A DNA stretch of 52,757 bases. Source: Escherichia phage vB_EcoM_SD350. The notes below the pieces were generated by a model. That model saw only the letters and a program-made list of their open reading frames with translations. It was not told the DNA's origin and did not search any database. A program made the position numbers and the translations under genes. Positions 7,328-49,033 of this stretch are shown one piece after another. The DNA lies in sequence record OR911937.1, one strand, 5' to 3'. The first letter of the stretch is position 1. Every line of letters starts with the position of its first letter.

Positions 7328-7356
7328 TTTACTTACTTCGCGTAACTCGTTATAAT
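7328..7356 (+). promoter_or_regulatory. late-block promoter candidate (TTTACT-N17-TATAAT)
   Basis: TTTACT 7328-7333, TATAAT 7351-7356; same architecture recurs at 10701, 12617, 18075, 20941, 49575. Confidence 0.4.
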
Positions 7357-7388
7357 CCCGACTATCCGGATTAACGAGGACGATACCC

Positions 7389-7679
7389 ATGGCAAAACCG
7401 AAAAAAACCCGTGAGGCAACAGAAGAGCTGTTGGCCACGATGCGACGTATCCAACTGGACCCGTTGGAAGTTATGCAACGGGCTATCATACTTGCTGAAC
7501 GTGAAGACGACTACAAAGCGATGATGGATGGTGCACTGGGCGTTATGCCGTACATGTATCCTAAACTGAAAGAATCCGTTGTCAAAGCAGACATCGACCA
7601 GAACCTGTCTGGTAATGGTGTCAACCTGAACATTACAATAGGCGACCAGAAAGTGGTAGATACTACTGGGGAAGAGTAA
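7389..7679 (+). CDS. terminase small subunit candidate
   Basis: 96-aa ORF immediately upstream of the large terminase, GAGGA ribosome-binding site; positional call. Confidence 0.45.
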   Translation: MAKPKKTREATEELLATMRRIQLDPLEVMQRAIILAEREDDYKAMMDGALGVMPYMYPKLKESVVKADIDQNLSGNGVNLNITIGDQKVVDTTGEE

Positions 7680-7682
7680 TAA

Positions 7683-9131
7683 ATGAATCTTGACTTTCAC
7701 CTGCATGACAGACAAGGTGCCGCTCTGCAGTCTCAGGCAACTGAGATTCTGTACGGTGGCGCCGCTGGTGGTGGTAAGTCTCACCTTATGCGTGTAATGT
7801 CAATTATCATGTGCTGCATGATACCTGACTTGCAGATTTACCTTTTCCGCCGAAACTATAACGACCTTACGGCTAACCACATGGTTGGTCCCACAAGTTA
7901 TCCTGCCTTGCTGGACGGTATGTGCAAAGCTGGCAAGTGCAAGATTAACTACTCGAGCAACACGATTAAATTCTGGAACGGTGCGAACATCAAGCTCTGC
8001 CACCTCCAGTACGAAAAAGATATTTATACATACCAGGGTGCGGAGATTCACGTTCTGCTGATGGATGAGCTTACTCACTTCACAGAAACGATGTACCGCT
8101 TCTTGCGTAACCGTGTCCGACTCGGTGCTCTCAAAGTCCCTGAGAACTTTTTCCGGCCACTGCCACTCATCTTTTGTGGGTCAAACCCCGGTGGTGTTGG
8201 TCACAACTGGGTTAAGCGCACTTTCGTAACTGCTGCTCCTCCGATGAAAATCGTTAAGCAGGAAAAACGCGAAGGCGGTATGGCGCGTCAGTACATTCCG
8301 GCTAAGATGACTGATAACCCTACGCTGATGGAAAACGACCCTGACTACGGTGACCGTCTTGAAGGTCTTGGTGACCCGGCTCTTGTTGCTGCGATGAAAG
8401 AGGGTGACTGGGATATTGTTGCAGGTGGTGCGCTTGACGACGTATGGTCAACCAAGTGTATTCTGCCGCGTATGCGTATTCCGAAAGGCTGGACTATCGA
8501 ACGTTCTCTTGACTGGGGTTCTACTCACCCGTTCTCTGTTGGTATCTGGGCTATTGCAAATGGTGCCTCGCTTACAGACGACGAAGGCAATGAGTACTTT
8601 ATTCCGCGTGGTTCAATTATACGTATAGCTGAATGGTATGGGTGCTCTGAAAAAGAAGCTAACAGGGGTATTAAATTATCTGCTGCCGAAGTCGCTCAAG
8701 GTATTATTCGTCTACAGGAAAATTTGCAGGCTGGTGGCTGGATTCAAAGCAACGTTAATCCTGGTCCGGCAGATAGTCAGATTTATGCGTGCAAGGAAAA
8801 AGACGTCGAGACTATCGCGAAGAAAATGGAAGACGAAGGCGTAACCTGGGTCAAGGCCGACAAGTCGCAAGGTTCGAGAATAAATGGCTTAGAGCTATTC
8901 CGTCAGCTTCTGAAAAATGTTAAGATGGACGAAACGGAAAAGCCGGGCATTTATTTCATGGAAAACTGTCCAGCAGCCATAAACACGTTGCCGGTTCTGC
9001 CGCGTGACAAGAACAACACGGAAGATGTCGACACGAACTCTGAGGACCACGTATACGATGATTGTCGTTACATGGTGTTGCGTGGCATCAACCGTTATAC
9101 TACCAAGCTCAAAATAAATATGGGACGGTAA
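7683..9131 (+). CDS. terminase large subunit
   Basis: 482 aa; Walker A GGAAGGGKSH near the N-terminus and acidic nuclease-like C-terminal half; followed by portal. Confidence 0.7.
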   Translation: MNLDFHLHDRQGAALQSQATEILYGGAAGGGKSHLMRVMSIIMCCMIPDLQIYLFRRNYNDLTANHMVGPTSYPALLDGMCKAGKCKINYSSNTIKFWNGANIKLCHLQYEKDIYTYQGAEIHVLLMDELTHFTETMYRFLRNRVRLGALKVPENFFRPLPLIFCGSNPGGVGHNWVKRTFVTAAPPMKIVKQEKREGGMARQYIPAKMTDNPTLMENDPDYGDRLEGLGDPALVAAMKEGDWDIVAGGALDDVWSTKCILPRMRIPKGWTIERSLDWGSTHPFSVGIWAIANGASLTDDEGNEYFIPRGSIIRIAEWYGCSEKEANRGIKLSAAEVAQGIIRLQENLQAGGWIQSNVNPGPADSQIYACKEKDVETIAKKMEDEGVTWVKADKSQGSRINGLELFRQLLKNVKMDETEKPGIYFMENCPAAINTLPVLPRDKNNTEDVDTNSEDHVYDDCRYMVLRGINRYTTKLKINMGR

Positions 9132-12585: not shown

Positions 12586-12618
12586 AAAAGGCGAGCTGAC
12601 GAGCTCGCCTTTTTTATT
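12586..12618 (+). terminator. rho-independent terminator after the capsid gene
   Basis: GGCGAGC-loop-GCTCGCC stem followed by TTTTTTATTT. Confidence 0.7.
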
Positions 12619-12645
12619 TACACGTATAAAGTTCTGGTATATAAT
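12617..12645 (+). promoter_or_regulatory. promoter candidate (TTTACA-N17-TATAAT)
   Basis: TTTACA 12617-12622, TATAAT 12640-12645, just after the terminator. Confidence 0.4.
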
Positions 12646-18074: not shown

Positions 18075-18113
18075 TTTACTTAACCGAGGCGCCAGCCTAT
18101 AATAAGCTGGCGC
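18075..18113 (+). promoter_or_regulatory. promoter candidate with the -10 hexamer inside a hairpin loop
   Basis: TTTACT 18075-18080, TATAAT 18098-18103; GCGCCAGC (18089-18096) pairs with GCTGGCGC (18106-18113). Confidence 0.4.
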
Positions 18114-20915: not shown

Positions 20916-20940
20916 AAATTAATTAACTTTGCACTGGCCA

Positions 20941-20969
20941 TTTACTTGGTTAAACTTACTGAGTATAAT
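20941..20969 (+). promoter_or_regulatory. promoter candidate upstream of the tail module
   Basis: TTTACT 20941-20946, 17-nt spacer, TATAAT 20964-20969. Confidence 0.4.
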
Positions 20970-21001
20970 GGCCGGAAAGTCCACCCAAGAGGTAAACAAA
21001 A

Positions 21002-38374: not shown

Positions 38375-38967
38375 TAAAACAGTTCCTTTTGAGCCGGGTT
38401 AACGTGTGCGTCGATGATGGACTGGATGTCAGGTGCTTTCCACCCTTCAGGCTTAACAATATCCTGACCAGACTTATGCTTGCTGTTGCTTGCATCAGGC
38501 TTAGCGCGTTCTTTCGCCATGTTAGCAGCCTGTACCGCATCCCATGCTGCGTCAAGTGGCCAGTTATTGTTTGCACACCAGGTAATCAGGTGGATAATTA
38601 ACTGGGCCAGACGGTCGCAATGAGTGTCTTCAGTATCCTTAACATATACAATAAGGCCATCAGCATCGAAACGGTCCATAAATCCGCATGGCGTAGTTAA
38701 CAGAATCGGATACTCAAATTCGTTGGTGAACCATGCAGTCTGGTCATACAAGTATAACGTACCTGCGGCAATGTAAATTAAATCTACAATACCATCTAAG
38801 AAGCCAGCTTTGTCGCCGTCCTTCTTAGCTTGTTTAATTTCTTCCATCTCCTCAATAAGACGGTCGTAACGAAGCTTGAACTCAGGTTTACCGCCTTGAC
38901 TAACAGGCTTGAGGTCAAACTTCTCATGAAAAGCGGTAACGCCTGCAGCAATTTTACTGAATCGCAT
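38374..38967 (-). CDS. MazG-like all-alpha NTP pyrophosphohydrolase
   Basis: 197 aa; acidic helix RLIEEMEEIKQA...DGIVDLIYIA typical of MazG-like pyrophosphatases; adjoins the TS-family gene. Confidence 0.5.
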   Translation of the reverse strand: MRFSKIAAGVTAFHEKFDLKPVSQGGKPEFKLRYDRLIEEMEEIKQAKKDGDKAGFLDGIVDLIYIAAGTLYLYDQTAWFTNEFEYPILLTTPCGFMDRFDADGLIVYVKDTEDTHCDRLAQLIIHLITWCANNNWPLDAAWDAVQAANMAKERAKPDASNSKHKSGQDIVKPEGWKAPDIQSIIDAHVNPAQKELF

Positions 38968-39352
38968 TTCGTAACTCCTTACAAACAGTTTCGATAAACT
39001 TACGCTTAATTTCTGTAGACCAGATAATATGACGAGCCTGTTCTAAAGTGTCCCAACGTTCTTTACCCACAGGAAAGGGAACAATGAAAAGGCCGGTACG
39101 GGATATGCGCTTGATAAACGGGAATTTACAGCGCATGGTTGTTTCAAACTTGATAAAGTTTGTTTGCACATCGCGTGTAAACTTGACCTTATCAAATTCA
39201 TGTTCAAGAGTTTGAGCAATGTTGCATACTTCCTGGAAAGAAGATGCAGGCAAGTAATCTTCGCGGCCGACGGTGTTCACGTAGTCGATTTGGCCTTCTA
39301 GTCGAAGTATCCAAATCCTGTAATAAGCTTCAGCAACACGTTGTAGATTCAT
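38954..39352 (-). CDS. hypothetical protein, coupled to the MazG-like gene
   Basis: 132-aa ORF whose stop overlaps the MazG-like start by 14 nt; first gene after the 39377-39407 promoter. Confidence 0.5.
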   Translation of the reverse strand: MNLQRVAEAYYRIWILRLEGQIDYVNTVGREDYLPASSFQEVCNIAQTLEHEFDKVKFTRDVQTNFIKFETTMRCKFPFIKRISRTGLFIVPFPVGKERWDTLEQARHIIWSTEIKRKFIETVCKELRNAIQ

Positions 39353-39376: not shown

Positions 39377-39407
39377 TTATTATACCACATCACTCTCTAG
39401 TGGTAAA
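39377..39407 (-). promoter_or_regulatory. leftward promoter with CCAC/GTGG inverted repeat and extended -10
   Basis: Minus strand reads TTTACCAC-N-GTGGTATAAT (TTTACC-N17-TATAAT); related copies at 42505-42533, 45745-45770, 48865-48897. Confidence 0.45.
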
Positions 39408-39432
39408 GCACTTTTTACGCTTCTGGTAAAAA

Positions 39433-39462
39433 TAAAAAGGACCAGCGTTAACTGGTCCTTTT
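39433..39462. terminator. bidirectional intrinsic terminator
   Basis: AAAAGGACCAG-cgttaa-CTGGTCCTTTT: perfect 7-bp GC-rich stem flanked by A and T runs. Confidence 0.65.
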
Positions 39463-40029
39463 GGCAGGGTGGCGTAAGGAGATACAAGGCATCGTAACTA
39501 TGCAACCAGGCAGCGCATATGAGATTGGCCAAAAGACTTACCATTTTAATCCCCGCGACGAGACGAAAGGAGGTGTTATCGAGTAGCCAATCACATATGC
39601 GTTACTTGCTGTGTGCTCTCACCGCGGAAAGTATAGAGCGTTGCACTTATCACACCGATGGAGTGGCAAAAGCACACAGCAAGTACAACCTTAGTTGTGG
39701 TGTCTTAGCACCTGAGTTATTGTGGATAACCTGCACCCGACGGGTGTCAAAAAAGATACGCCAAAACACCACAACTAAAATTGTGACCGCCGTCTACACC
39801 AGGCGCCTGGGGTCAAGGTAGCGAGCCAATACCCTTTTCAGCGTCGGAGGAATCGAACCTCACACATCACGGCTTTTACCAAATCTCGGTCAGCGAGCAG
39901 AATTGAACTGCATTCACTGGACACCCTCACTGTTTCAACACACCAGGCTTAATTGATTGTTGATAAGAAGAGAGATGTAAGGATGTCCATTGAATGCACC
40001 TCCGTAGAGGTGCGTTCAGATCAGCGCTA
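39463..40029. other. noncoding island inside the replication operon; candidate structured RNA or origin
   Basis: ~570 bp without a credible ORF; perfect 15-bp inverted repeat (39602-39616 / 39670-39684, 53-nt spacer); 12-bp palindrome CCAGGCGCCTGG (39800-39811); two T-arm-like stem-loops (~39846-39862, ~39896-39912). Confidence 0.4.
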
Positions 40030-40497: not shown

Positions 40498-40603
40498 AAT
40501 TTTTTCCTCGTCTACAGGGCTTAATGTTTGTTCGTTACGTGAGTTAATATACGTCATTTAAAAGAGTGTGTAAACACCTTTTTTAAACTTTTTTCATTAG
40601 TGT

Positions 40604-40825
40604 CTAGAAAGGCACATCATAGTCAAAAAGTTTACATCCGGAAGACAGGACTGCCGGCGGTGGTGTTTTGCCTCCGGATAACAGGCAACCTCCTGCCTGA
40701 AAACTACGGCAGTTCGCACAGCTCATATCCTGCAAGTATATAATAAGCTGTCGGCGAACATGCCGGGGTAAAGCTTTAGCCTGGGTTGCTACCCGTTCAA
40801 ATAGTTCTCTGTCATCGAGCGCCAT
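40604..40825 (-). CDS. small Cys-containing hypothetical protein
   Basis: 73-aa ORF with CANC...C...C; overlaps the helicase 3' end by 14 nt. Confidence 0.4.
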   Translation of the reverse strand: MALDDRELFERVATQAKALPRHVRRQLIIYLQDMSCANCRSFQAGGCLLSGGKTPPPAVLSSGCKLFDYDVPF

Positions 40826-42482
40826 AACCGTTTCCCCAGTCGTAGTTCATGATTTGTGGGTAGGGTCGTTTAATCCATACCTTGATGCGCTTAGGAATAG
40901 CCAGCTCACCCTTACGGCGAATAAACTCATCGCATGTTTCAGGCGGTTCTGTTCCTGCAGCATTGCGCCACCAGGCATCTGCCATTTGCTTAGCATTGCC
41001 ATGGGCCTCTATATTTACCCATGTTGTATACACTTCCAGGTTTGAGTAGTACACAACCTTTATACTGTCTGGCCGTCCCTGCTTCTGGAATAAAGAATAG
41101 TTTACCAGCGTAACATCTTTATCCACAACACGAAGCTGACCGTTAGTCATTACCTCTTCTTCTGATGAAGTGAAGGCAATGGCAGGTCCGTTAACTGTAA
41201 ACTCAAATTCATGTCCGCACATCGGATATACACCATTCTCGTCTGGCGTACTTCCTTTAGCCGGATGCTTACACGTACGTGCGGCATAGCCACTTACCTG
41301 GTGACAGATAGGGCACTCTTTACCGCCAGGTGTTTTCTCTGACCGTTTCTTTTTCTTCTTACCAAGACGTGGCGGAACAGCCGGGTCGTCAATAGGCCCA
41401 AGGTCAATGGTGTTAGATGTGAAGTCCATAACAAGACAGTCATGCTTACCAGGCGCTGTACGTAATCCTCGACCGAGTATCTGCACCCACAAAGCAACAG
41501 ACGTGGACGGGCGCAAGATGCCGAGCATATCAATCTCAGGATAGTCAAATCCTGTCGTCAATACGTTTACGTTTACACAGACTCGTGCTCGTCCGCTTGT
41601 AAACTCTTCCAGTGTGGCTTCACGTTCTTTCTTCGTAAGACCGCCATGCACAACTACAGTCTGCCACCCTCGCAGATTAAATTCGTCTGCTATGTTGTGG
41701 GCGTGCTCAACACTTGTGGCAAATACAAGAACGTGGTTCCTGTCTTTACCGTAGTGCATCATCTCACGAATAGCCGCGACTGTTATACTATGCTGGTTGG
41801 CTACCTTCTCAAGCTCTGACGGGATGTAGTCACCCATCCTTTCGCCAACATTACTAGTGTCAATCTTGGTTAACACTTTCTTGTTGACCAGGCGTGACAG
41901 GAAGCCTTCATTTACCAGTCGGGTAAATGCGTCAGGTGTTGTAAGGTCATAACAGATGTCGGTAAATATACCACAGTCCAGCAAGTGACCACCTGCCAGG
42001 CGATACGGAGTTGCCGTAAGTCCTGTTACCTTTACCTTAGGATTAAGCTCTTTGAAGTGAGCAATAACCTTACGGTATGTTGTTTCAGACTTCTCAGGAA
42101 CAAGATGGGCTTCGTCAATGAATATAAGATTGAACTTGCCAGCTTCTTCCAGGTTCTTAATAATTGACTGTACCGACGCTACAACGATACGACCTGAAAA
42201 GTCTTTGTGTCCTGCTCCTGAAGAGTAGATAGATACTGGGGCTTGTGGCCAGTGGCGTACAATCGCTTTGGCGTCTTGTTCTACCAGCTCCTTGACGTGT
42301 GTCAATATAAGAATGCGCTGACGGGGATAGCTGGTAAGAATATCCTTCATCAGCATACCAAGCACAGGTGATTTACCTGAACCTGTCGGCATGACAATAA
42401 GTGGATTACCACTATAAGAATTGAAGTACGACCACCAGGCTGTGACCGCTTCAGTTTGGTACCAGCGAGCTTCAAAAGCCAT
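40812..42482 (-). CDS. SF2 (DEAH-type) DNA helicase with C-terminal zinc ribbon
   Basis: 556 aa; Walker A MPTGSGKS, Walker B FIDEAH, C-terminal CPICH...CKHP...MCGHE. Confidence 0.7.
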   Translation of the reverse strand: MAFEARWYQTEAVTAWWSYFNSYSGNPLIVMPTGSGKSPVLGMLMKDILTSYPRQRILILTHVKELVEQDAKAIVRHWPQAPVSIYSSGAGHKDFSGRIVVASVQSIIKNLEEAGKFNLIFIDEAHLVPEKSETTYRKVIAHFKELNPKVKVTGLTATPYRLAGGHLLDCGIFTDICYDLTTPDAFTRLVNEGFLSRLVNKKVLTKIDTSNVGERMGDYIPSELEKVANQHSITVAAIREMMHYGKDRNHVLVFATSVEHAHNIADEFNLRGWQTVVVHGGLTKKEREATLEEFTSGRARVCVNVNVLTTGFDYPEIDMLGILRPSTSVALWVQILGRGLRTAPGKHDCLVMDFTSNTIDLGPIDDPAVPPRLGKKKKKRSEKTPGGKECPICHQVSGYAARTCKHPAKGSTPDENGVYPMCGHEFEFTVNGPAIAFTSSEEEVMTNGQLRVVDKDVTLVNYSLFQKQGRPDSIKVVYYSNLEVYTTWVNIEAHGNAKQMADAWWRNAAGTEPPETCDEFIRRKGELAIPKRIKVWIKRPYPQIMNYDWGNGYGAR

Positions 42483-42504
42483 TTATCATCTCCTCATTAA
42501 CTTT

Positions 42505-42533
42505 ATATATTATACCACTTCCTTGTGGTAAAG
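42505..42533 (-). promoter_or_regulatory. leftward promoter candidate (CCAC-N6-GTGGTATAAT on the minus strand)
   Basis: Plus strand ATTATACCACTTCCTTGTGGTAAAG; minus strand reads TTTACCACaaggaaGTGGTATAAT. Confidence 0.45.
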
Positions 42534-42540
42534 TATACTT

Positions 42541-43419
42541 TTATTTTAAGGAAAGTTTAACGGGCTTCTCATCCTGCGGGAAGACATCAGCAGGGCGATA
42601 ATCATCACAAGCTGCTAATTGCTCTTCGAGTGTTTCGAGTTCTTTCTGGTGCTTGTTGCAATACCACACTTTGCCCTGAAGCGGTTTACTGTAATGGCAG
42701 GTTCTGCAGTTCCTGTCTGGCATTGCTCCTTTGTGGCACAGGTGATGGTATTCGCACATCCCTGGTTTGCACTCCCACCAAATAGGCGATTCAGAAATCT
42801 TCGGCATATCCAAACCAGATTCCGCATATACAACAGCCTCCGCTTTACTCAGTTGTATGTCGCTTTCCAGTAAGTCAATCTCGACCACCTCAAAATACAT
42901 CTCGTCGGTGTTCTTATTGATTGCGATGTACACAGCTTGATTCAGCTTAAGCTTCCGCATGTATACCTGCATCTGGGCATAGTGTACCGGCTTACTTGCT
43001 TTAACAGACTTGAGCTTGACTAACTCTTTAAACGACTTATCGCCATGCGTCTTGAATTCAGCAAGTGCCCATACGCCTTTGTATTTAATTACACAGTCAC
43101 AAGACCCAGAGAAGATGCCATTGAATTCGTGTATGCGCCACTGCTTACCAGTCTTGGGATTGACGTCCAGCACTTCGTCACATACGGAACGAAGCCACTT
43201 TACAATTCTGCTTTCTTCAAGGTTACCACGTTCAAACAGACGAAGTTGCTTAGCTGTAAACTTCTCCTTGAACGACCAGTGCAGAACGTGCCAAAGATAG
43301 CGATAGCAGTTGTGTCCTATCTGTGATGCTCCAAGATGCCCGCGTCGTTCTTCTCTTTCGTGGGCTTCAACTATCTTGATGTCAATACGTTTCTGCAGGT
43401 CGTCAAACGGACTTGGCAT
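42541..43419 (-). CDS. PD-(D/E)xK exonuclease, RecB/Cas4-like with Cys cluster
   Basis: EFK and QMQVY nuclease motifs plus C-terminal Cys cluster (CKPGMC, C, C..C); start set at MPSPFDD (GAGGAG upstream), not the track start 43536. Confidence 0.55.
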   Translation of the reverse strand: MPSPFDDLQKRIDIKIVEAHEREERRGHLGASQIGHNCYRYLWHVLHWSFKEKFTAKQLRLFERGNLEESRIVKWLRSVCDEVLDVNPKTGKQWRIHEFNGIFSGSCDCVIKYKGVWALAEFKTHGDKSFKELVKLKSVKASKPVHYAQMQVYMRKLKLNQAVYIAINKNTDEMYFEVVEIDLLESDIQLSKAEAVVYAESGLDMPKISESPIWWECKPGMCEYHHLCHKGAMPDRNCRTCHYSKPLQGKVWYCNKHQKELETLEEQLAACDDYRPADVFPQDEKPVKLSLK

Positions 43420-44495: not shown

Positions 44496-44602
44496 TGTTT
44501 GGTATCCTGTTTAAGTTTAGTTTAATTTCGTTTAACGCTTTACCGGCAGCGTTCGGCCGTGATGCTTATTATACGCCACTTTTTATCATGGCGTAAACAC
44601 TT

Positions 44603-45487
44603 TTATTCGCTGGTTCCTTTCTCAGCTTGAGCGGCTTTCTTCGCCATCCAGGCTTGGTGCTTATCTTTCGATTCGTCCGAACCGATTTTAGTGAGTTGCA
44701 CGTTCGGGTCGTCGTTCTGCATCTGTTCTGCAGCTCGACCTGTCAGAAGCAGGTAGCTGTCTGACTCCGGATGGTAGTACCACAGCTGGTAAGGATGATA
44801 ACCTTGCAGCTTGTCATAAATCCAGCCCAGGTCTGCAGGTTCACGTGCATCCAGTTCACGGCCTGGTGCGTTACGGCACTTAGCTTCCCATTGGTAGTCT
44901 GGTTGTGTCTGGATGTAGCGCTCGCTATTACCATTGGCGTCAGGCGCAGTCATACGTAAAGCAAGTACAGCATCCATAAGATACGGCAGTTGTTTAGGTA
45001 GCTGCTGGCCAGGCATGAGAGGTGAATACAACATTGCACCAGTAACCTCGTCCTTGTTCTTCTCAAGCTTGCAAAGGTATGCAACGCTGAAAGGCAAGTC
45101 ACGGAACTGACGCATGATATACATCATCTTGTCGTTGGTATTACCATAAGCCTGTCGTTTGTCGTTGACCTGCGACTTCTCATAGTCCAGACAAACTTCA
45201 GCAACGTCCGATAGTGAGTCGAAAATAAGATGCTCGTACTTCTGCGCATCCTTACTTTCGGTAAGCCATTTGTATAGCGCCAGAATGTCGTTGAACGTAT
45301 TGATTGGCGTAGAGTCGATGTCAGCATCTGCAATCGACATCAAACCGCCTTCAGCGTTAATGACAAGAACCTTATCGTGAGGCAAGGTCTTAGCCAGGCT
45401 GGTTTTACCAACACCTGATGCGCCGTAAATAGCGACCTTAGGTCGCTTATTTTCTACGGCTTGTTTAGTAGATACAATCTGAACCAT
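44603..45487 (-). CDS. Sak4-like RecA-fold ATPase (recombination)
   Basis: 294 aa; Walker A VAIYGASGVGKTS near the N-terminus, Walker B-like LIFDSLSD. Confidence 0.55.
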   Translation of the reverse strand: MVQIVSTKQAVENKRPKVAIYGASGVGKTSLAKTLPHDKVLVINAEGGLMSIADADIDSTPINTFNDILALYKWLTESKDAQKYEHLIFDSLSDVAEVCLDYEKSQVNDKRQAYGNTNDKMMYIMRQFRDLPFSVAYLCKLEKNKDEVTGAMLYSPLMPGQQLPKQLPYLMDAVLALRMTAPDANGNSERYIQTQPDYQWEAKCRNAPGRELDAREPADLGWIYDKLQGYHPYQLWYYHPESDSYLLLTGRAAEQMQNDDPNVQLTKIGSDESKDKHQAWMAKKAAQAEKGTSE

Positions 45488-45717
45488 TAATGATAGTCCT
45501 CGTAAAGTGATTCTTCATCGCAGTACATACGATAAAGAGCTTCTTCGGCTTCTGCCAGGGTGTCAAACTCCTCGCCACAGACGGAGTATTTTGTGGGTTC
45601 ATCGAATGACTCGACGATGTGCCAGTCATGATGAATACCATATGTCCACAAGTCGCAGTCATCTTTTGCAACAAGCTTACGTGTGGAACGAAATTGTGCT
45701 AGAGTATTGATGCTCAT
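45487..45717 (-). CDS. hypothetical small protein
   Basis: Start set at MSINT (AGGAGAGAG upstream) rather than track start 45756; promoter-like motif at 45745-45770. Confidence 0.4.
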   Translation of the reverse strand: MSINTLAQFRSTRKLVAKDDCDLWTYGIHHDWHIVESFDEPTKYSVCGEEFDTLAEAEEALYRMYCDEESLYEDYH

Positions 45718-45777
45718 ATTCTCTCTCCTCATGTGTATAGAGGTATTATACACCACTTACATGGGGTAAGTACACTA

Positions 45778-47938: not shown

Positions 47939-48280
47939 TCAAGAATCAGATGAGCTATCTTCACGTTTGACCTCCGGAAGTAATGAGTTATCAACCTTGA
48001 TCAGTACGTTACGGCTGTTAACCACTTCCAGGCTGGTGCCATCCTTTTTGTGGGTTACACGAATAAATGCAACACCCTCAGCCTGTGCCTGCTCAATAGC
48101 TTTATTCAGCACAACATTATCCTGTACCATATGACGTACGCGAGGAAGGATATTGCAAAGAGGTTCCATCTCGTCCATTCCTGCAGTACGCATGACGGAC
48201 TTGAGAATGCCAAGATGATGCTTGTAACGGTCTTCAAGATTATACTTCTTGCTGTTATCTGATGCCATGTAAGTCTCCAA
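47939..48280 (-). CDS. hypothetical protein
   Basis: 113 aa; preceded on the transcript by a GC hairpin (48287-48305) and GGAGAC ribosome-binding site. Confidence 0.45.
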   Translation of the reverse strand: METYMASDNSKKYNLEDRYKHHLGILKSVMRTAGMDEMEPLCNILPRVRHMVQDNVVLNKAIEQAQAEGVAFIRVTHKKDGTSLEVVNSRNVLIKVDNSLLPEVKREDSSSDS

Positions 48281-48312
48281 AAGTTAAGGGGCTTGTGCTA
48301 AGCCCCGTTTAA

Positions 48313-48762
48313 TTACTCGGCTTCTTCCGTAGCTGCCGGGGTGAATGTTACAGTCGGAATACCAGGCGAGGTCTTCACAACAGGGTCGACGATAGCCAGT
48401 TGTTCTGGTGTCAGGTTACGGTATGCAGTAACTGACATTTCATACTTGGTTTTAAACAGCTTGGCAACAACAGTCTTCGGTAACTTCTTCATTACGTCAG
48501 GCACAAGCTTCTGGTCTAGTGAGCGGTTAACCTTCTGCTCAACCTTGAGTTTACCAGGTACGCCATGCATGCTGAACTCAACCGTTTGTGTACCTTCTTT
48601 ACCACGATTGATAATCATGTCACGTTCAAGACGTGCTTTAATGGTCCGGCGCAACGTCTCCTGGTCAGCTTTCGCTTGTGCCATCCAGCGGTTCAGATTC
48701 GCCAGCTTGTCGTACAGCTGTTCCGTATCCATCGATTCCAGTTCTTGTGGGTTCAATGCCAT
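48313..48762 (-). CDS. hypothetical protein
   Basis: Start set at MALNP (GAGGAA upstream); promoter-like motif 48865-48897 lies upstream. Confidence 0.45.
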   Translation of the reverse strand: MALNPQELESMDTEQLYDKLANLNRWMAQAKADQETLRRTIKARLERDMIINRGKEGTQTVEFSMHGVPGKLKVEQKVNRSLDQKLVPDVMKKLPKTVVAKLFKTKYEMSVTAYRNLTPEQLAIVDPVVKTSPGIPTVTFTPAATEEAE

Positions 48763-49033
48763 CAGTTGTTTCCTCAGGTTGCATGTGCATAGTTGCACCT
48801 ATTAGTAGACAATAGTTATTGAACATTGTACGTAGTGCCTGGCCCGCAACAATATCCGTTATGTCTATTATACCACTTTTAGTGGTGACGCGTAAAGCTT
48901 TTTCTTTCTTTGTTTTCTCCACAAATGCAATGCTGATGATTTCTTCCGCATGAATTACGTGGATGGTACCTGCAAACTCACCAGTCTTAGCTGGTGCCTG
49001 GTACACTAACGACATAGACGGTTGGTTACTCAC
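48665..49033 (-). CDS. alternative overlapping ORF (uncertain)
   Basis: 122-aa ORF with GTG start and GGAG 7 nt upstream, but overlaps 48313-48762 by ~100 nt and contains the promoter-like motif. Confidence 0.3.
   Translation of the reverse strand: MSNQPSMSLVYQAPAKTGEFAGTIHVIHAEEIISIAFVEKTKKEKALRVTTKSGIIDITDIVAGQALRTMFNNYCLLIGATMHMQPEETTDGIEPTRTGIDGYGTAVRQAGESEPLDGTSES
48865..48897 (-). promoter_or_regulatory. leftward promoter candidate (TTTACG-N18-TATAAT with CCAC/GTGG inverted repeat)
   Basis: Minus strand reads GCTTTACGCGTCACCACTAAAAGTGGTATAAT. Confidence 0.4.

Follow-up and report, generated by a model that had tools for sequence, protein, structure and literature searches.

Why does an inverted repeat with CCAC and GTGG arms abut the -10 element of a leftward promoter, and what does it do there? 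The question arises at positions 42505-42533 of the window, by which we mean the whole 52,757-bp stretch of DNA that was analysed. The window is a nearly complete Rosemountvirus genome (a BP63-like Salmonella/E. coli myovirus). Over 12 kb it is 96-98.5% identical to Rosemountvirus phages of Salmonella and E. coli, for example vB_SalM-LPSEYT and BP63, and its gene order is collinear with that of BP63. A preliminary description had placed the repeat at four leftward sites. All four lie within a leftward DNA-replication module, at about 33.9-49.6 kb, which encodes DNA polymerase, thymidylate synthase, helicase, a Cas4-domain exonuclease, dCMP deaminase, SSB, Sak4, and many small ORFs. The intergenic gaps measure just 60-70 nt.

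Positions 42505-42533 read as the spacer and extended -10 of a predicted internal promoter of the sigma-70 type that drives the helicase gene. The following features were identified at this locus:

40812-42482, minus strand: helicase gene, with its ATG at 42482-42480
42543-42541, minus strand: stop codon of the upstream Cas4-domain exonuclease gene
42509..42514, minus strand: -10 element TATAAT of the helicase promoter, invariant in 11 of 11 distinct orthologous sequences; the BP63 orthologue is an annotated promoter
42517-42516, minus strand: TG of the extended -10
42532..42537, minus strand: -35-like TATACT, 17 bp upstream of the -10; TGTACN in relatives
42549-42539, minus strand: A-rich tract upstream of the -35
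42530-42525 / 42524-42519 / 42518-42513, minus strand: dyad TACCAC/AAGGAA/GTGGTA, whose 3' arm takes in the TA of the -10

We assign 42537-42532 as the -35 provisionally, because it matches TTGACA at only three of six positions. Within this region GT(A/G)TAC is invariant in relatives. Transcription probably starts about 7 nt after 42509. The same module holds sister promoters that bear on the role of the dyad:

44568..44597, minus strand: promoter of the SSB gene, TTTACG-N18-TATAAT, with TACGCCA (44595-44589), a 10-nt loop, and TGGCGTA (44578-44572)
45745..45775, minus strand: promoter before the gene at 45487-45717, with GTGTAC, a spacer stem, and TATAAT (45750-45745)
39379..39407, minus strand: promoter TTTACC-N17-TATAAT before the gene at 38954-39352, annotated in BP63
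48867..48896, minus strand: promoter-like TTTACG-N18-TATAAT with ACCACT-AAA-AGTGGT/ATAAT (48886-48867), inside the coding ORF 48665-49033

The SSB promoter is a fifth and stronger example of a spacer dyad, and was absent from the preliminary list.

Several lines of computation support the assignment of these sites as promoters of the host sigma-70 type. Each site combines a -10 that matches the consensus perfectly or nearly so with a T(T/G/A)TACN hexamer 17-18 bp further upstream, and an A-rich tract is also present. The hexamers are invariant across the lineages examined, and flanking bases vary. The BP63 record already marks the orthologues of 39379, 42509, and 44568 as promoters, and that of AEV23 does so for several of the sites; both are the work of independent groups. 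No RNA polymerase appears in the BP63 annotation. For phage S144, host-type promoters were predicted and no phage RNA polymerase is present (PMC7432712). In the literature on Rosemountvirus and Loughboroughvirus we found generic promoter predictions only, and no transcriptomics or structure probing.

The promoter identity proposed in the preliminary description is supported computationally by the consensus -10, the -35-like hexamer at 17-18 bp, the invariant hexamers, and the independent BP63 and AEV23 annotation. The finer points of that proposal survive in part. The CCAC...GTGG-TATAAT string said to be shared by four leftward sites is present at 42509, 39379, and 48867, as is the extended -10 (TGn), but 45745 has neither CCAC nor TGn; TGn is also missing at 44568. 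TTTACC/G had been given as the upstream part of the motif. TTTACC at -35 distance is found only at 39379 (17 bp), whereas 42509 has TATACT at 17 bp, matching at three of six positions; 48867 and 44568 have TTTACG at 18 bp. Three sites stand directly upstream of a gene with a good ribosome-binding site and are intergenic, as described, but the site at 48865-48897 is neither. It falls inside the coding ORF 48665-49033, the product of which is 34% identical to fHy-Eco03 gp75 across a span that includes the codons of the motif, and the next start codon after 48867 is at 48762, about 105 nt downstream.

Statistically, the surplus of stems is clear. The sequence GTGGTATAAT occurs three times, always on the minus strand, versus 0.11 expected, and 0 of 100 shuffles reach three. 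Every copy has ACCAC 5' of it, and the dyad ACCAC-N(3-11)-GTGGT is confined to the same three places (0.49 expected). Perfect spacer stems of 6-7 bp are present in five of eight leftward promoters (spacer-shuffle test, P 0.002-0.03 each), and none of the nine other TTTAC-N17/18-TATAAT promoters of the genome has a stem of more than 4 bp. A scan of 44 TATAAT hexamers, from which the two closest to the ends of the sequence were omitted, finds only four with a stem of at least 6 bp whose 3' arm stops at the hexamer start, and all four belong to leftward promoters. The 3' arm stops at positions -12/-11 in nearly every lineage and promoter, its last bases being the T, TA, or TAT of the -10. A terminator reading of the spacer stems was rejected, as no U-tract follows them and the terminator scan lists none there. 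An Rfam search returned no matching family. ZCSE2 also has one rightward promoter of the same build, TACACAG-N9-CTGTGTA/TAAT.

The relatives compared were Rosemountvirus, Loughboroughvirus, the fHy-Eco03/KE25/KM group, Erwinia phage SOI901, and two metagenomic relatives. Helicase-based searches of IMG/VR and metagenomes yielded two lineages only (L010 and L081), and four extra isolate genomes contributed almost no new sequence variants. Phages with approximately 40%-identical helicases have a different gene layout and were uninformative. When the motif is followed into related phages, as the preliminary description had suggested, the hexamers prove invariant but the arms are swapped for other complementary sequences. 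At the helicase promoter the arms are ACCAC/GTGGT, ATCAC/GTGAT, ACGC/GCGT, or CGCGC/GCGCG, between nearly identical flanks, and the loop A(A/T)GGAA is invariant across lineages. In a loop-anchored alignment both sides have changed in three of six pairs, and the covariation score of the dyad is 0.467 versus 0.131 in shuffles (0 of 500).

The sister promoters show the same behavior to differing degrees. The SSB-promoter stem (spacer-shuffle P = 0.002; z = -4.3) is 100% paired in seven sequences, including one compensatory change from G-C to A-U and two variants with wobble pairs on the sense strand; one metagenomic relative has a clean intermediate, TACACCA/TGGTGTA. In SOI901, AAUUUUUU follows the SSB hairpin. 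At 45745 the stem can be drawn as ACTTAC-CCCAT-GTAAGT (45771-45755) or, with one mismatch, as TACCCCA/TGGTGTA (45768-45749). Its counterparts are TACCCCA/TGGGGTA in ZCSE2 and SE13 and TACCCCT/AGGGGTA in KE25 (7 bp), and ATAACC/GGTTAT in SOI901 (6 bp). These hairpins sit in differing registers between lineages, and there is no RNAalifold consensus for all lineages. In a five-sequence subgroup the 45745 region forms a 26-pair nested hairpin that is 92% paired, with no double changes, and in ZCSE2, SE13, and SE4 this hairpin extends to the Shine-Dalgarno sequence (SD). The stem at 48867 is replaced by a different one in ZCSE2 (ATACCA-CTAA-TGGTAT), and fHy-Eco03 is without a clear stem. The dyad at 39379 (TACCAC-N11-GTGGTA/TATAAT, 39405-39379, minus strand) belongs to a promoter directly downstream of an intrinsic terminator (39462-39435). 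It is limited to part of the Rosemountvirus clade, and five other lineages and one Rosemountvirus, SE13, have GTAG for GTGG. The dyad is either a recent single-base accident (A-to-G) or a recent gain.

Potentially addressing the second part of the question, the helicase dyad may be the tip of a conserved hairpin, formed in read-through RNA, that masks the helicase ribosome-binding site. This is the explanation we prefer, although tentatively and at somewhat less than an even chance. Two strands define the base of the predicted hairpin:

42548..42554, minus strand: anti-Shine-Dalgarno strand UUUCCUU, in the last codons of the exonuclease gene, recovered in the RNAalifold, minimum-free-energy, and centroid structures
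42489..42495, minus strand: helicase Shine-Dalgarno GAGGAGA, the 3' strand of the basal helix

Folding 12 distinct orthologous sequences gave the nested fold as the minimum-free-energy structure every time, and the RNAalifold consensus of 11 sequences has three nested helices. The basal helix (42554-42548 / 42495-42489) has seven pairs, with 77 of 77 cells paired in the 11 sequences. A short middle helix pairs part of the -35 region with bases just past the -10. Over the whole hairpin, 94.4% of cells are paired, versus 39-65% with slid partners. The basal helix contains one C-G to U-A double change, a single evolutionary event, which tracks a shift of the SD from GAGGAG to AGAGAGG; in another three pairs variation is limited to G.U. 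Both strands of this helix are constrained otherwise, because the 5' strand is coding and the 3' strand is the SD. For the sense RNA the folding energy is -17.7 kcal/mol (z = -3.0), and its basal helix spans about 8 bp. An antisense-strand reading was rejected, as the basal helix drops from about eight to four pairs. In eight of nine lineages the sense strand gives the more stable fold. The G.U pairs make the hairpin sense-strand-specific.

Predicted accessibility of the helicase SD depends on where the RNA begins. In this genome the probability that the SD is unpaired is 0.02 on read-through RNA, 0.70 on RNA initiated at the promoter (modeled as starting 7 nt after the -10), and 0.46 when the upstream sequence is shuffled. 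Across lineages, the SD core is unpaired at 0.00-0.04 on read-through RNA in five of six, at 0.48-0.70 on RNA from the promoter, and at 0.37-0.58 with the upstream part shuffled. In the five masked lineages the fraction of shuffles at or below the observed value is 0-0.025. Masking is only weak in SOI901 (0.26; shuffle fraction 0.18). The geometry is that of a promoter within a hairpin, with the -10 (42514-42509) placed between the two strands of the basal helix. On the minus strand no terminator-like site is predicted from 44568 to 42541.

The mechanism that we propose runs as follows. A stem-loop of about 75 nt (roughly 42555-42489) would form only on read-through transcripts from upstream promoters, such as that at 44568. 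At its base, UUUCCUU from the last exonuclease codons would pair with the helicase SD; in the middle, part of the -35 would pair with the bases after the -10; and the dyad would form the top. On such read-through mRNA the helicase ribosome-binding site would be sequestered. Because the masking strand comes from the end of the preceding ORF, the masking helix could be opened by translation itself: a ribosome terminating at the exonuclease stop would melt the basal helix and expose the site, an instance of translational coupling. Transcripts from the embedded promoter would begin in the 3' half of the hairpin and leave the ribosome-binding site free. We infer that read-through RNA spans the hairpin, that translation is affected in some way, and that the apical stem acts within RNA and not on DNA.

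This model covers one promoter and leaves part of its own structure unaccounted for. Of 13 promoters tested, SD masking is significant at 42509 only, and it was therefore rejected as a general explanation of the dyads. There is no masking at the SSB promoter and no significant masking at 45745, so the hairpins at these two promoters need another explanation. At the helicase promoter itself, in silico disruption of the apical dyad leaves predicted masking almost unchanged. On this result we rejected, at equilibrium, the idea that the apical stem clamps the basal helix, and the model therefore leaves the maintenance of the dyad unexplained.

Other explanations of the dyad must be weighed against the masking hairpin. 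The preliminary description likened it to an operator; on this reading, a dimeric DNA-binding regulator of phage or host origin would control the timing of the promoter. A dyad over the -10 is the classic operator layout, its 3' half overlaps the -10 as in lambda-type operators (OR1/PR), and identical ACCAC/GTGGT arms occur at three sites of the genome. The arms TATCAC/GTGATA and TACCAC/GTGGTA also presumably resemble lambda operator half-sites, if superficially. Unlike lambda half-sites, however, those described here are inconstant in sequence and spacing both within and between genomes. The gaps at the three same-arm sites are 3, 6, and 11 nt, and over the genome the arms differ (TACCAC, ACCACT, TACGCCA, TACCCCA), with gaps of 3, 5/6, 6, 10, and 11 nt. 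Unrelated arms (CGCGC, ACGC) are present in close relatives whose promoters are otherwise identical, the helicase arms vary in genomes whose other promoters retain theirs, and the GTGG at 39379 comes from a single A-to-G change within the genus. No repressor-like protein was identified: among about 28 small ORFs scanned with Pfam (10 also with PHROGs; phage proteins only, many of them ORFans), none yielded an HTH or any other DNA-binding domain, and the only matches were to DUF7173, a PDDEXK nuclease, and a DHFR-like protein. With its arms and spacing variable, its arms swapped in compensatory fashion, and no DNA-binding protein recognised among the small ORFs scanned, the dyad is most likely not an operator, and we consider this the least probable of the readings. 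Alternatively, the dyads could be functionless quasi-palindromes, produced by template-switch mutation or promoter-cassette recombination, with compensation that is mutational and unselected. Quasi-palindrome correction alters both arms together without selection. In SPHG1, perfect inverted duplications lie exactly at two of these promoters, which marks the promoters as rearrangement junctions in this phage group. The 39379 dyad was completed by a single transition, and some complementarity is built in, between the TAC of the -35 and the G-TA at the -10. Yet at three promoters, the same ones in five lineages, stems of 5-7 bp have been retained through four or more arm sequences, and nine other promoters with the same hexamers have none. 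Stem turnover inside unchanged flanks and loop looks like maintenance of pairing, and an origin without function seems very unlikely.

Two kinds of active role can also be envisaged for the stems themselves. They may be intercistronic RNA elements that do one job at all of the promoters, with SD masking at the helicase a separate matter. Such elements could shield the upstream message from 3' exonucleases, or could flag the AU-rich UAUAAU for cleavage; read-through polymerase might also be paused or attenuated there. In line with this, the conserved hairpins at 44568 and 45745 show compensatory and G.U changes and yet mask no SD. Hairpins start 8-25 nt past the upstream stop codon in very compact intergenic regions, and SOI901 has AAUUUUUU after its SSB hairpin. 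Promoters that cannot receive read-through, namely 49513 (the first of the module) and 39379 and 12617 (both behind terminators), are without a conserved dyad, a small sample that favors an RNA-level or read-through-related role. Stems are short, however, with RNA stabilities of -5 to -12 kcal/mol, the U-tract after the stem is missing in most lineages, and the ending of the 3' arm in the T/TA/TAT of the -10 is left unexplained, and overall we rate an intercistronic element as unlikely. A DNA-level role would account equally well for the close alignment of the 3' arm with the TA of the -10; compaction is an alternative reason for this alignment, the spacer being the only unconstrained stretch of these 60-70 nt intergenic regions. 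As a DNA structure, a spacer hairpin or cruciform could tune the open complex or the response to supercoiling, perhaps with a structure-specific phage factor. Consistent with this are the position of the 3' arm, the pairing kept despite varying sequence and loop length, the rightward ZCSE2 promoter of the same build, and the lack of a clear wobble strand bias in the apical stems (about four sense G.U versus three C.A, counted by eye). As single-stranded DNA, however, the stems reach only -3.4 to -6.3 kcal/mol, which is far under the cost of cruciform extrusion from duplex DNA and argues against spontaneous cruciforms. Full sigma-70 hexamers are present at these promoters, and the neighboring helices of the same palindrome rely on G.U, which fits RNA. 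The group is reported to be without an RNA polymerase of its own (PMC7432712), and the small-ORF scans revealed no structure-specific factor. We regard a DNA-level role as improbable. The same small weight goes to the idea that spacer stem-loops form a regulatory class of their own at sigma-70 promoters, acting on DNA or on nascent read-through RNA independently of ribosome-binding-site masking. Its short hairpins, ending at -12/-11 and kept by compensatory change at several promoters of a phage family, would, for example, respond to supercoiling or to transcription arriving from upstream, or recruit a structure-specific phage factor, and so set when internal promoters fire or how well they are insulated.

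The preferred reading, a read-through hairpin over the helicase ribosome-binding site, resembles a known mode of control. The ribosome-binding sites of T4 genes e, soc, 49, and I-TevI are hidden on long transcripts but left exposed on those made from the embedded promoter (PMC3014915). In both cases the SD is paired with sequence upstream of an internal promoter (here by prediction), and RNA from the internal promoter is without the 5' strand (here given the probable start site). In contrast to T4, where the embedded promoter is of the late type, the promoter here has sigma-70 -35 and -10 elements. The masking strand also lies in the last codons of the preceding gene, which would make for coupling and not for pure silencing, and there is an extra covarying apical stem in the promoter spacer.

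Extended -10 promoters of lytic coliphages, of the T4 early type, have GTTTAC ... TGnTATAAT and an upstream A-tract. The promoters described here share the TTTAC-type -35, the TGn-TATAAT, the 17-18 bp spacer, and the A-rich tract, but differ in the weak -35 (TATACT) at 42509 and in the conserved inverted repeat in several spacers. PeSL cassettes of T4-type phages combine a strong sigma-70-like promoter with a stem-loop and are linked to rearrangement junctions (PMC2839356). The present sites are likewise intergenic promoter/stem-loop composites tied to rearrangement (in SPHG1). The PeSL stem, however, is a G/C-rich terminator upstream of an AT-rich tract and the -35, whereas the stem here is short, lies in the spacer, and has no U-tract. 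The PeSL layout is found in this genome only at 39462-39407 and 12586-12645, and is absent at 42509. Early hairpin promoters of phage N4 are similar in having a short stem of 5-7 bp just upstream of the start that is kept as a structure. A virion RNA polymerase reads the N4 hairpins, which lack -35/-10 hexamers; the sites described here have full sigma-70 hexamers, and no polymerase is reported for this phage group (PMC7432712).

The promoters themselves are ordinary and already annotated in relatives. What is new is a spacer stem kept by compensatory change at several internal promoters of Rosemountvirus, Loughboroughvirus, and their relatives, and a helicase promoter inside a predicted RNA hairpin. 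Helicase translation would then depend on which promoter a transcript came from or on translation of the upstream gene. The hairpins of the SSB and 45745 promoters pose a small and cleanly testable question. If confirmed, the findings would caution against calling each promoter-overlapping dyad an operator, and would extend the control known from T4 genes to unrelated phages that are therapeutic candidates and to internal promoters of the sigma-70 type.

Strong intrinsic terminators abut promoters at two places in the window, an arrangement that resembles PeSL, the promoter/stem-loop cassette of T4-type phages in which a terminator stem-loop lies upstream of the -35:

39435-39462, strong intrinsic terminator directly upstream of the -35 of promoter 39407-39379
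12586-12613, strong intrinsic terminator directly upstream of the -35 of promoter 12617-12645

Because the annotated 54-aa ORF at 39380-39544 runs across both the first terminator and its promoter, it is probably not a gene. Terminator-like hairpins were also identified at two further sites:

in 40546-40600, minus strand, promoter TTTACA-N17-TATATT
48288-48306, bidirectional terminator-like hairpin (GGGGCTTGTGCTAAGCCCC) between genes 48313-48762 and 47939-48280

The second of these lies within the leftward module. At 40546-40600, the hairpin (AAAAGGTGT...ACACTCTTTT) is centered on the -35; in the relatives ZCSE2 and SE4 the corresponding stem is longer and six consecutive Ts come after it. Predictions at this site also pair the Shine-Dalgarno (SD) sequence of the following gene with the region around the stop codon of the preceding one (CCTTTCTAG), although this masking is not significant.

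Stems also surround elements of rightward promoters:

18075-18103, plus strand, promoter TTTACT-N17-TATAAT
18089-18113, plus strand, 8-bp stem (GCGCCAGC/GCTGGCGC) whose loop holds the -10 hexamer of that promoter
20934-20975, plus strand, stem CTGGCCA/TGGCCGG (one G.U) enclosing the entire promoter 20941-20969

The first stem is conserved in ZCSE2 and takes the form AGCCAG/CTGGCT in Erwinia phage SOI901; the second is conserved in both. The ZCSE2 counterpart of promoter 20941-20969 also carries a 7-bp spacer dyad (TACACAG-N9-CTGTGTA/TAAT), which resembles the spacer dyads of the leftward promoters.

At the leftward helicase promoter, the hairpin loop A(A/T)GGAA (42519-42524 and orthologues) is purine-rich and SD-like. 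It is invariant across all lineages, despite its location in the promoter spacer and several replacements of the adjoining stem. The related Salmonella phage SPHG1 shows two such features, at about 7690-7790 and 8925-9000: its promoter of the type found at 45745 is duplicated in perfect inverted form, and its helicase promoter is flanked by a perfect 18-bp inverted repeat (TTAACGTCTCCTCATTAA / TTAATGAGGAGACGTTAA). The rearrangement junctions of the SPHG1 genome fall at these two promoters. Two public records probably carry taxonomy or host-label errors: phage CF2 (KY608966.1), placed under Tequatrovirus and flagged UNVERIFIED, and "Listeria phage 220426122051" (PP583539.1), which is 97% identical to the Rosemountvirus of the window.

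Two hairpins lie in the leader regions of genes:

7346-7391, plus strand, hairpin whose 5' arm contains the -10 hexamer 7351-7356
44534-44553, minus strand, hairpin AACGCT-GCCGGTAA-AGCGTT within the SSB 5' UTR

The 3' arm of the first (7368-7378) overlaps the SD GAGGA of gene 7389-7679, a geometry similar to that of T4 gene e, and SOI901 has stronger predicted masking than the window (0.20 versus 0.52). The SSB hairpin is kept in every lineage compared, with arms AACGCA...TGCGTT in KE25, SOI901, and metagenomic (UViG) relatives, a compensatory change. By analogy with other phage SSBs, this hairpin may be a translational operator.
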